A stretch of 64,000 nt of DNA from Promethearchaeota archaeon. Lineage in GTDB: Archaea > Asgardarchaeota > Lokiarchaeia > Sigyniarchaeales > SOKP01. Each line of letters begins with the position of its first letter. Position 1 is the stretch's first letter. Under the pieces are notes generated by a model. It saw nothing but the letters and a program-made list of their open reading frames with translations, did not search any database and was not told the origin of the DNA. The DNA is taken from the NCBI GenBank assembly GCA_013375475.1, contig JABXKD010000005.1, forward strand, positions 16,767-80,766. Direction: 5' to 3'. This document shows, piece by piece, positions 8,249-9,599 of this stretch. Made by a program: the position numbers and the translations under genes.

Positions 8249-9599
8249 ATGCCAACCGATAAAAAACATTTAAACCTCGTGATTATAGGACATTTTGTTA
8301 GGCTAATTAAGCCTTCAGGTTCAAATTGATCACGGGAAATCAACAATGATGGGCGCAATGCTCATTAAAACTGGAGCAGTAACCGATAGAGAAGCAAGAG
8401 AACTTGAGAAGTTAGCAAAAGAGAACGATAGAGAATCTTGGTCTTACGCATATGTGTTTGACCGGTTGAAAGAAGAACGAGCACGGGGTATTACTATTGA
8501 CTTAGCTTTTCGAAAATTTGAAACTAAAACTAAATATTTTACTATAATTGATGCACCTGGACACGCGGACTTCGTTAAGAATATGATCACTGGTGCTTCT
8601 CAAGCTGATGCTGCTATTTTAGTCGTTTCTGGAAAGAAAGGCGAAATGGAAGTTGGTGTCGCAGCTAATGGTCAAACTAGAGAACACGCTTATTTAGCGC
8701 AAACCTTAGGTGTTAAACAATTAGTAGTTGCCGTTAATAAAGCCGATGTCTACGATTACAAGGAAGAGCGTTATAACGAAGTAAAAGATGCAGTCTCTGA
8801 CCTTCTAAAAAATATTGGTTTTCCAGTTAAAAAAATTCCGTTTGTACCCGTTAGCGGTATTAAAGCGGAAAATCTTACAGAGAAATCAGATAAACTTCCA
8901 TGGTACGATGGTCCTACTTTAATTGAAGCGATTGATGCTTTTGAACTCCCACCAAAACCTACTGGCAAACCTCTACGAGTTCCAATCCAAGATGCATACA
9001 ATATCAAAGGAACGGGGGTTGTTCCTGTTGGAAGAGTAGAAACTGGTGTATTAAAGAAAAATGATAAAATAGTTATCATGCCAACGGGCTTTAAAGGGGA
9101 AATAAGAAGCATCGAAATGCATCACGAAGAACAAAATCAAGCAGAACCCGGTGATAACATCGGATTTAGTATTAGAGGTATTACAATGGCAGATGTTGGC
9201 CGTGGCGATGTTATGGGCCACCCAACTGATGTACCAACTGTAATTAATCGAAATGGGAACTGGACTGGACAAGTAATTGTTATCTGGCATCCAACAGCGA
9301 TCGCTCAAGGGTACACCCCTGTAGTTCACGCTCACACTGCTCAAGTAGCCGCTAAATTCATCGAATTAAGTAAAAAATTAGATCAAAAGACTGGTGCTGT
9401 AATAGAAGACAATCCAAAATTCCTCAAGAAAAATGAATCAGCGATAATTAAGCTACAACCTATTAAAAAGCTTTGTCTTGAGAAGTATTCGGAATTTCCC
9501 GAATTGGGGCGATTTGCGGTGCGCGACATGGGTAGAACATCGTGTGTGGGGATTGTCAAGGATTTAGATCCTGGTGAACCTGTAGTTAAAAAAAAGTAG
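8249..9599 (+). CDS. tuf: Translation elongation factor 1-alpha, two exons (8249-8293 + 8325-9599), 439 aa after splicing
   Basis: Exon 1 MPTDKKHLNLVIIGH + exon 2 IDHGKSTMMG...ERARGITID...DAPGHADFVKNMITGASQAD...NKAD...LGRFAVRDMG; joining restores the P-loop GHIDHGKST. Confidence 0.95.
8294..8324 (+). other. 31-nt bulge-helix-bulge (tRNA-type) intron in EF-1alpha mRNA
   Basis: TTTGTTAGGCTAATTAAGCCTTCAGGTTCAA; central helix GGAC(8288-91)/GUUC(8319-22), bulges AU|U and AA|A, inner hairpin AGGCU/AGCCU, exon-exon helix 8276-8285/8327-8336. Confidence 0.88.

Follow-up and report, generated by a model that had tools for sequence, protein, structure and literature searches.

The EF-1alpha gene and its two reading frames

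The window analysed here is a stretch of 64,000 nucleotides (nt) from the Promethearchaeota archaeon assembly GCA_013375475.1 (contig JABXKD010000005.1, positions 16,767 to 80,766 of the forward strand), and all positions below refer to this window unless another contig is named. It contains the gene of the elongation factor EF-1alpha (8249-9599), which is split in the codons of its GTP-binding loop (P-loop) by 31 nt at 8294-8324 that very probably are a real pre-mRNA intron of the bulge-helix-bulge (BHB) type. The gene consists of the following parts:

8249..8293, + strand: EF-1alpha exon 1, ATG plus 14 codons, up to the Gly-His of the P-loop; its 15 residues recur at the N-terminus of G014, an intronless relative
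8294..8324, + strand: predicted 31-nt BHB intron, phase 0, from fold and boundary enumeration; absent in 21 of 21 intact same-genus loci compared
8325..9599, + strand: EF-1alpha exon 2, IDHGKST... through the stop codon, with the match to NCBIfam TIGR00483

From the ATG at 8249, the + strand reads MPTDKKHLNLVIIGH (15 codons, ending with GH), continues with FVRLIKPSGSN and stops at the TGA of 8327-8329, and the open reading frame (ORF) 8249-8329 is therefore the unspliced frame of the EF-1alpha start. The frame of 8325 reads IDHGKST and leads into a 417-residue ORF that is listed as 8346-9599 (+), and the two coding frames are offset by the 31 nt of 8294-8324. With 567 bits against a cut-off of 540, TIGR00483 (EF-1alpha) identifies 8346-9596, but the match covers the profile positions 24-424 of 427, and as it begins only at position 24, the P-loop part is absent from the listed ORF. 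The first-pass annotation, which had been made from the letters alone, had described exactly this situation, i.e. the stop at 8327, the continuation in the frame of 8325 and an ORF-track protein without P-loop, and all of this can be read in the sequence. Its proposal that removal of 8294-8324 restores GHIDHGKST also holds: the joined coding sequence is an open frame of 439 residues without stops, the first 25 of which are identical to those of the intronless G014, and the tryptic peptide across the predicted junction GH-IDHGK would be HLNLVIIGHIDHGK.

The gene has the properties of a gene in use. In a comparison of the spliced form with G014 (433 aligned codons, 95.6% identity), the synonymous divergence dS is 0.46 and the ratio of nonsynonymous to synonymous divergence (dN/dS) is 0.057, and by this measure EF-1alpha is under strong purifying selection. 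The genome is a metagenome bin of 3.92 Mb in 288 contigs that is scored 100% complete with 6.4% estimated contamination. A second, intact EF-1alpha, which the first-pass annotation had named, together with transcripts that always retain the insert, as a finding that would speak against an intron, was not detected in it, the next-best match being only 32% identical, and on this assembly 8249-9599 is the genome's only EF-1alpha gene.

Fold and splice boundaries

The RNA of 8270-8342 folds with a minimum free energy (MFE) of -21.8 kcal/mol, compared to -10.8 +/- 2.4 kcal/mol for 200 dinucleotide shuffles (z -4.54), none of which (0/200) folds as well, and the BHB fold is retained in a 151-nt context (8230-8380). 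It comprises the following elements, all on the + strand:

8276..8285: outer exon-exon helix h, 5' strand, from the MFE fold, pair probabilities 0.86-1.0
8327..8336: outer exon-exon helix h, 3' strand, from the MFE fold, 10 base pairs (bp) with 8276-8285
8288..8291: central 4-bp helix H, 5' strand (GGAC, exon 1), from MFE fold and boundary enumeration
8319..8322: central helix H, 3' strand (GUUC, intron), from MFE fold and boundary enumeration
8292..8294: 5' bulge, unpaired in the MFE fold with an unpaired probability of 0.71-0.93, predicted cut at 8293/8294
8295..8318: inner helix h' (8295-8297/8316-8318) with terminal hairpin (8300-8304/8310-8314), from the MFE fold
8323..8325: 3' bulge, predicted cut at 8324/8325; U8326 is also unpaired in the free RNA

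The order on each strand, helix H and then the bulge, is that of the BHB motif in the anticodon arm of archaeal pre-tRNAs, as also described in a preprint (bioRxiv 10.64898/2026.10.13.758758). The position of the cut at the 5' bulge follows from the BHB register together with the restoration of the frame. All cut pairs near the site were enumerated and kept if the joined product gave the conserved peptide, and there is exactly one frame-restoring cut pair, 8294-8324, which is identical with the canonical BHB register, i.e. a cut after the second base of each bulge here, with 4/4 pairs in H. Fold and frame thus agree on the boundaries, as had been claimed, and the calculated structure gives h, H, the 5' bulge, the inner helix and the hairpin as they had been drawn (z -4.5). 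Two details of that drawing have to be given up. The pair A8287-U8326 has a probability of only 0.009 and forcing it costs 3.3 kcal/mol, and as it is not favoured, the 3' side is a 4-nt/2-nt internal loop in the free RNA; and the loop that was thought to have 7 nt after ligation has 10 nt in the MFE hairpin of the joined exons. Of the features of the motif, H, the 5' bulge, the flanking helices h and h' and an open joined frame are all found, with a relaxed 3' bulge.

The insert in DNA and RNA data

The insert is not confined to one assembly. Sequencing runs from 14 studies matched (23 runs); where a run holds the greater part of the gene, it is a marine sediment metagenome, and all of these belong to one study. 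Four of the 23 runs, X2, X8, X17 and X19, all with assembled contigs, were compared over the gene. A 191-nt contig of X2, which is from the same study as the likely source but another sample, covers 8233-8423 with no difference or gap. The first-pass annotation had named a lack of support in DNA reads as a refutation, and in this contig of a second sample the insert is present unchanged. In X2 there is, in addition, a relative that has no intron and differs in its exon codons (joint 8271 to 8325, 22 other letters). Contigs of RNA runs over EF-1alpha differ from the window by at least 11 letters per piece and hence stem from relatives; record 1 of X17 begins at 8325 with five unmatched letters and is not decisive. 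A blastn-short search of the genome with 8294-8324 found only the insert itself and no further copy.

Interrupted EF-1alpha genes in relatives

EF-1alpha was matched in 38 of 42 genomes of the genus, in 123 of 135 of the family (with the source genome, G000, counted) and in 140 of 154 of the order. In the genus, the gene is interrupted near the N-terminus in 6 of the 38 matched genomes. In the family, where all matches with a query start of at least 9 or with internal stops were inspected, 15 of the 123 matched genomes have an EF-1alpha insert of 29-33 nt, and these inserts are found at seven sites. Three other families belong to the order, and none of their 17 matched genomes was flagged for an interruption. 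The sites in the family are:

HLN|L: G067, 31 nt
LV|II: G106, 30 nt
GH|ID: G000, 31 nt
ID|HG: G080, 29 nt
site B, inside the Lys codon of GK: G017, G018 and G045, 33 nt
site B: G041, 31 nt
site B: G043, G152, G141, G094 and G101, 32 nt
GHAD|FVKN: G103, 30 nt
GRT|VAVG, near the C-terminus: G112, 30 nt

Each of the 15 genes has one to five frame-restoring options, exactly one of which has a perfect 4-bp helix H in the BHB register, and by our own arithmetic random 4+4 bases would pair fully in about 2% of cases at this genome's base composition. Since the insert length varies between 31, 32 and 33 nt at a single site, and some of these inserts have two in-frame stops, they cannot be coding. RNAalifold, applied to the nine sequences of site B, finds the outer helix, H, the two bulges and the inner helix, and 5 of the 13 pairs show compensatory changes; these nine introns may go back to a single gain or to repeated gains.

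The GH|ID site is occupied in G000 alone among the matched genomes of the family, and its nearest relatives G014 and G044 (95-96% identity) are intact there. By this distribution, the intron at 8294-8324 is a recent gain in the lineage of this species. The exon codons fit to it: the exon-exon helix h has 10/10 pairs in G000, compared to 4-9 (median 6) in 61 intronless locus rows, in which some genomes are possibly counted twice, and the closest relatives form 5-6 of the ten pairs. This suggests, without being proof, that the codons around the P-loop are partly self-complementary by nature and that synonymous choices in G000 complete the helix.

Some further matches have been looked at individually. 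In G308, which belongs to another Asgard family (f31), the EF-1alpha sequence is spread over three frames of a single contig (L210, G308:C45:20103-21605), with a run of N after it. Short stretches with internal hairpins interrupt it at two places, following GRPSW and within DAPGHKDF..KNM. For the first gap there are 18 options, the best of which has 4/4 pairs in H and an unconvincing peptide, and no BHB register could be assigned; the cut-pattern search found nothing in the second gap. In the genus g52, each matched genome has two EF-1alpha matches among those listed, and in the two genomes inspected, G235 (L201/L206) and G232 (L202/L207), these are no split gene but a pair of intact paralogues with 50% and 40% identity to the query. 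In G253 and G376, it is a contig end that breaks the match, and the match in G275 has one TGA.

Mini-introns in other genes of the genome

EF-1alpha is not the only interrupted gene of this genome, as mRNA introns can be assigned to at least four genes. A search with Pfam GTP_EFTU detected two more genes with internal stops, those of aIF2gamma and of an EF-2-like protein, and a RadA paralogue came from a structure-based scan. The predicted introns are:

contig C33:22268-22297 (L004 2430-2459), - strand: aIF2gamma, BHB intron of 30 nt that splits the Lys codon of the P-loop GHVDHG-K-TT
39022..39051, + strand: EF-2-like gene (38833-41115), in-frame insert of 30 nt that contains a TAA (39028); helix H UCAG/CUGA (39016-39019/39046-39049), inner helix 5 bp
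contig C255:54146-54176 (L200 847-877), + strand: RadA paralogue, 31-nt BHB intron, phase 0, between ...DAIGGN and IVAHG...

The aIF2gamma intron has AUGG/CUAU as helix H and an outer helix of 2 bp. It lies at the same inter-nucleotide site as the EF-1alpha introns of site B in nine other genomes, and with the one of G041 it has the loop CUUUUCGA and similar ends in common. Among 30 loci of the genus, eight have the intron (29 nt in seven, 30 nt in G000) and eight are intact, another runs into the end of its contig, and the search pattern failed to anchor the remaining 13; open-frame data suggest that 12 of 39 aIF2gamma genes are interrupted.

The EF-2-like protein reaches 566.7 bits with the aEF-2 profile TIGR00490, which is below the cut-off of 738. 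Its junction is supported by 25 intronless loci of the genus that read ...MTDSD and then EEEQARGITI, exactly as predicted, and the insert is present in three loci, including those of G023 and G015, with two more not anchored. In the gene of G015 (L199, - strand), another 31 nt separate AHID from HGKTT, at about 37 nt upstream of the codons of the latter; the single frame-restoring cut of this insert has only 3/4 pairs in H, i.e. a relaxed BHB. The start of the EF-2-like gene in the window is peculiar in that 38833-38835 is ATA, where 8 of 8 relatives examined have ATG (M-VKVKNPEE), and there is no in-frame ATG, GTG or TTG upstream of 38833; this may be a non-canonical start or a decaying copy. 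A third translational GTPase of the window (30606-31241, +), a 606-residue open frame with GTP_EFTU positions 6-187, has no flagged interruption.

In the RadA paralogue, the two exons cover the profile positions 4-269 and 270-315 of 316. The intron is found in seven gene copies of five genomes, G000, G008 (two), G042 (two), G020 and G016, and is absent in two relatives that were examined, and its inner helix covaries across the seven copies with A-U/G-C and U-A/C-G exchanges.

A strict genome scan for structure plus ORFs gave 7677 raw hits, of which 1166 remained after the ORF filter and five after the energy filter. EF-1alpha ranks first with -21.8 kcal/mol, followed by the RadA paralogue with -17.9, and the next best has -10.9. 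Three of the five are false, one being an EamA-type transporter with an adjoining Nudix-like ORF (judged by eye) and two being short tails. The scan missed aIF2gamma with its 2-bp outer helix and also the EF-2-like gene. A relaxed scan (17121 hits, 2697 after filtering, 30 with both ORFs of at least 90 codons) was unspecific; aIF2gamma was the only recognisable intron in it, and the RadA paralogue was lost to the read-through filter. As three of the four introns were found by inspecting GTPases, no enrichment in GTPases is claimed. The intron in EF-1alpha appears to belong to a population of mini-introns of about 30 nt that come and go in the protein-coding genes of this Asgard family, many of them in P-loop codons of translational GTPases.

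Splicing machinery and proposed mechanism

The enzymes for such a splicing are encoded in the genome. Two EndA paralogues of 200 and 202 residues (G000 C215 and C133) match PF01974 with 99 and 70 bits as well as TIGR00324, a single RtcB (C211) reaches 561 bits, and intron-bearing tRNA genes are present as well. Asgard EndA is reported to be an (alpha-beta)2 enzyme with the broad-specificity loop (PMC5829648), and the tRNA-intron preprint mentions two EndA paralogues for 44 of 60 Asgard genomes (bioRxiv 10.64898/2026.10.13.758758).

In the transcript, the exon codons on either side of the intron would pair over 10 bp, and the GGAC of exon 1 would pair with GUUC, the last four paired bases of the intron. 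Each splice site would thereby come to lie in an unpaired stretch beside a 4-bp helix, like in the anticodon arm of an archaeal pre-tRNA. The two-subunit EndA could then cut after 8293 and after 8324, RtcB could join the exons to an mRNA for a 439-residue EF-1alpha with intact P-loop, and the intron would be released, probably as a circle. Cleavage, ligation and their timing relative to translation are what we infer here, beside the structure, boundaries, gene integrity, enzyme genes and comparative pattern that were observed. The central claim of the first-pass annotation, a 31-nt BHB intron that splits the P-loop of EF-1alpha, is supported by the fold, the boundaries, the single copy, the selection, the enzymes, the contig of a second sample, the inserts of relatives and the three further introns of this genome. 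With good confidence, the only EF-1alpha of this genome can be regarded as having gained recently a 31-nt BHB intron that would be spliced by EndA and RtcB and would be one member of a mini-intron population.

Alternative explanations

Several observations weigh against the BHB intron and have to be set beside the evidence for it. The pairs of H (8288-8291/8319-8322) have probabilities of only 0.67-0.68 and one of them is a G-U pair, and instead of a clean 3-nt bulge the 3' side of the free RNA has an internal loop of 4 nt (8323-8326) opposite 2 nt (8286-8287). No spliced junction of this species was seen among the contigs of X2, X8, X17 and X19. The GH|ID intron is known from one genome only and hence has no covariation of its own, and two pattern scans of metagenomes gave no further copy, with 0 hits in one and three chance matches in the other, all three of which are uninterrupted LepA-like genes. 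As the intron starts 45 nt after the start codon, ribosomes could, in a cell that couples transcription to translation, break up the helix ahead of the cleavage. Last, the source genome is a metagenome bin with an estimated contamination of 6.4%.

If the gene were a pseudogene, inactivated by the 31-nt insertion and making no functional EF-1alpha, the DNA frame would be broken just as it is written, with 8346-9599 as longest ORF and no P-loop in it, and as the neighbouring EF-2-like gene has ATA for the ATG of its relatives, some decay in the bin is conceivable. EF-1alpha is essential, though, and the bin, which is scored complete, has no second copy; a dN/dS of 0.057 at a dS of 0.46 does not suit a dead gene, the insert can be removed exactly in the BHB register, and 14 other genomes have the same kind of insert in EF-1alpha. 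A pseudogene is thus very improbable. An even smaller chance is left for recoding, i.e. an unspliced mRNA on which ribosomes either make a +1 frameshift at AAT TGA or bypass the 31 nt. The length of 30 + 1 nt and the stop at 8327, which follows the insert with a stable hairpin nearby, would be compatible with it, and a stop codon near a stable hairpin does recall known recoding sites, but a frameshift would insert 11 residues into the Walker A loop. Programmed ribosomal bypass of the T4 gene 60 type is defined by matching take-off and landing codons, and there are no such codons around 8291-8327, neither CAT (8291-8293) nor GGA being repeated at the landing side. Moreover, the inserts of sister genomes have 29-33 nt, and in-frame ones among them contain one or two stops; BHB excision can account for this variety, a single recoding rule cannot.

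An artefact of assembly or sequencing may come to mind in view of a bin that is fragmented into 288 contigs with 6.4% contamination, and of an intronless relative that co-occurs in the same study. It is about as implausible as recoding: the contig from another sample is identical over 8233-8423, an artefact would not create a BHB whose removal restores the frame, and it is only in this genome that the exon codons pair 10/10. A self-splicing group I or group II intron does not come into question with 31 nt, compared to the hundreds of bases of a ribozyme core, and in the window no Rfam family reached its gathering score and ARAGORN found nothing.

A bolder idea goes beyond this intron and is rather unlikely as a whole. 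BHB mini-introns of about 30 nt might be actively spreading in Asgard protein genes and favour targets that already supply half a BHB, with the P-loop codons of translational GTPases (GAY CAY GGN AAR) as a hot spot. The common site, the common loop and the similar ends of the introns in aIF2gamma and in the EF-1alpha of G041 suggest a transfer between these paralogues, which could take place, for example, by reverse splicing or gene conversion. If that were true, EF-1alpha, aIF2gamma and the EF-2-like factor would depend on EndA and RtcB, and translation factor production could be coupled to the same capacity by which these organisms mature their heavily interrupted tRNAs.

Comparison with known systems

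In the literature that could be searched, to which most subscription journals and supplements do not belong, there is no report of BHB introns in EF-1alpha, aIF2gamma, EF-2, RadA or any Asgard protein gene. For pre-mRNA BHB motifs, papers from 2018 and 2025 cite only three papers on cbf5, and the word mRNA occurs 0 times in the text of the Asgard tRNA-intron preprint of October 2026 (bioRxiv 10.64898/2026.10.13.758758). The mechanism as such is already known, and what would be new relative to the literature searched is the scale, in that a single gene is hit at seven sites and four genes of a single genome are interrupted, with a uniform size of about 30 nt and in an Asgard lineage. An essential and highly expressed translation factor would be split in its GTP-binding loop in the archaeal group that is closest to eukaryotes, and mRNA splicing by protein enzymes becomes testable in Asgard archaea with respect to gain and loss, the choice of targets and a possible coupling to tRNA maturation. 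There is also a practical side, in that gene callers shorten or split such genes (EF-1alpha was called without P-loop here), from which errors may arise in marker-gene phylogenies, in completeness estimates and in the number of pseudogenes counted for Asgard bins.

The closest precedent is the pre-mRNA of cbf5 in Crenarchaeota, for which a BHB intron was reportedly described by Watanabe in 2002 and by Yoshinari in 2006. Like the intron of this crenarchaeal pseudouridine synthase gene (Yokobori 2009, PMC2738675), the EF-1alpha intron is a short non-coding intron of an archaeal protein gene that is bounded by a BHB and attributed to the tRNA splicing endonuclease, and in both cases there is gain and loss among related species. 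The host gene and the lineage are different, EF-1alpha has inserts at seven sites across the family, no fewer than four genes of one genome are interrupted, and all inserts have 29-33 nt. The splicing of cbf5 has been demonstrated experimentally, whereas the EF-1alpha intron is known here from sequence.

With the introns at position 37/38 of archaeal pre-tRNAs, the EF-1alpha intron shares the exon helix, the 4-bp helix that is formed by exon-1 bases and the 3' end of the intron, the 5' bulge with a cut after its second base, and the inner helix, and the same enzymes would act on it. Unlike in tRNAs, the host RNA is an mRNA, from which the removal must be base-exact to keep the frame, there is no tRNA body that could aid the recognition, and the 3' bulge is irregular.

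The splicing of HAC1/XBP1 likewise is an excision of a short mRNA intron by protein enzymes and without spliceosome that changes the reading frame. The endonuclease is IRE1 in that case, which acts on paired stem-loops and not, like EndA, on a BHB, and the splicing serves there as a stress switch. The exons of XBP1 are joined by an RtcB-type ligase, and the EF-1alpha intron may be a prokaryotic counterpart to the RtcB-dependent mRNA splicing of eukaryotes.

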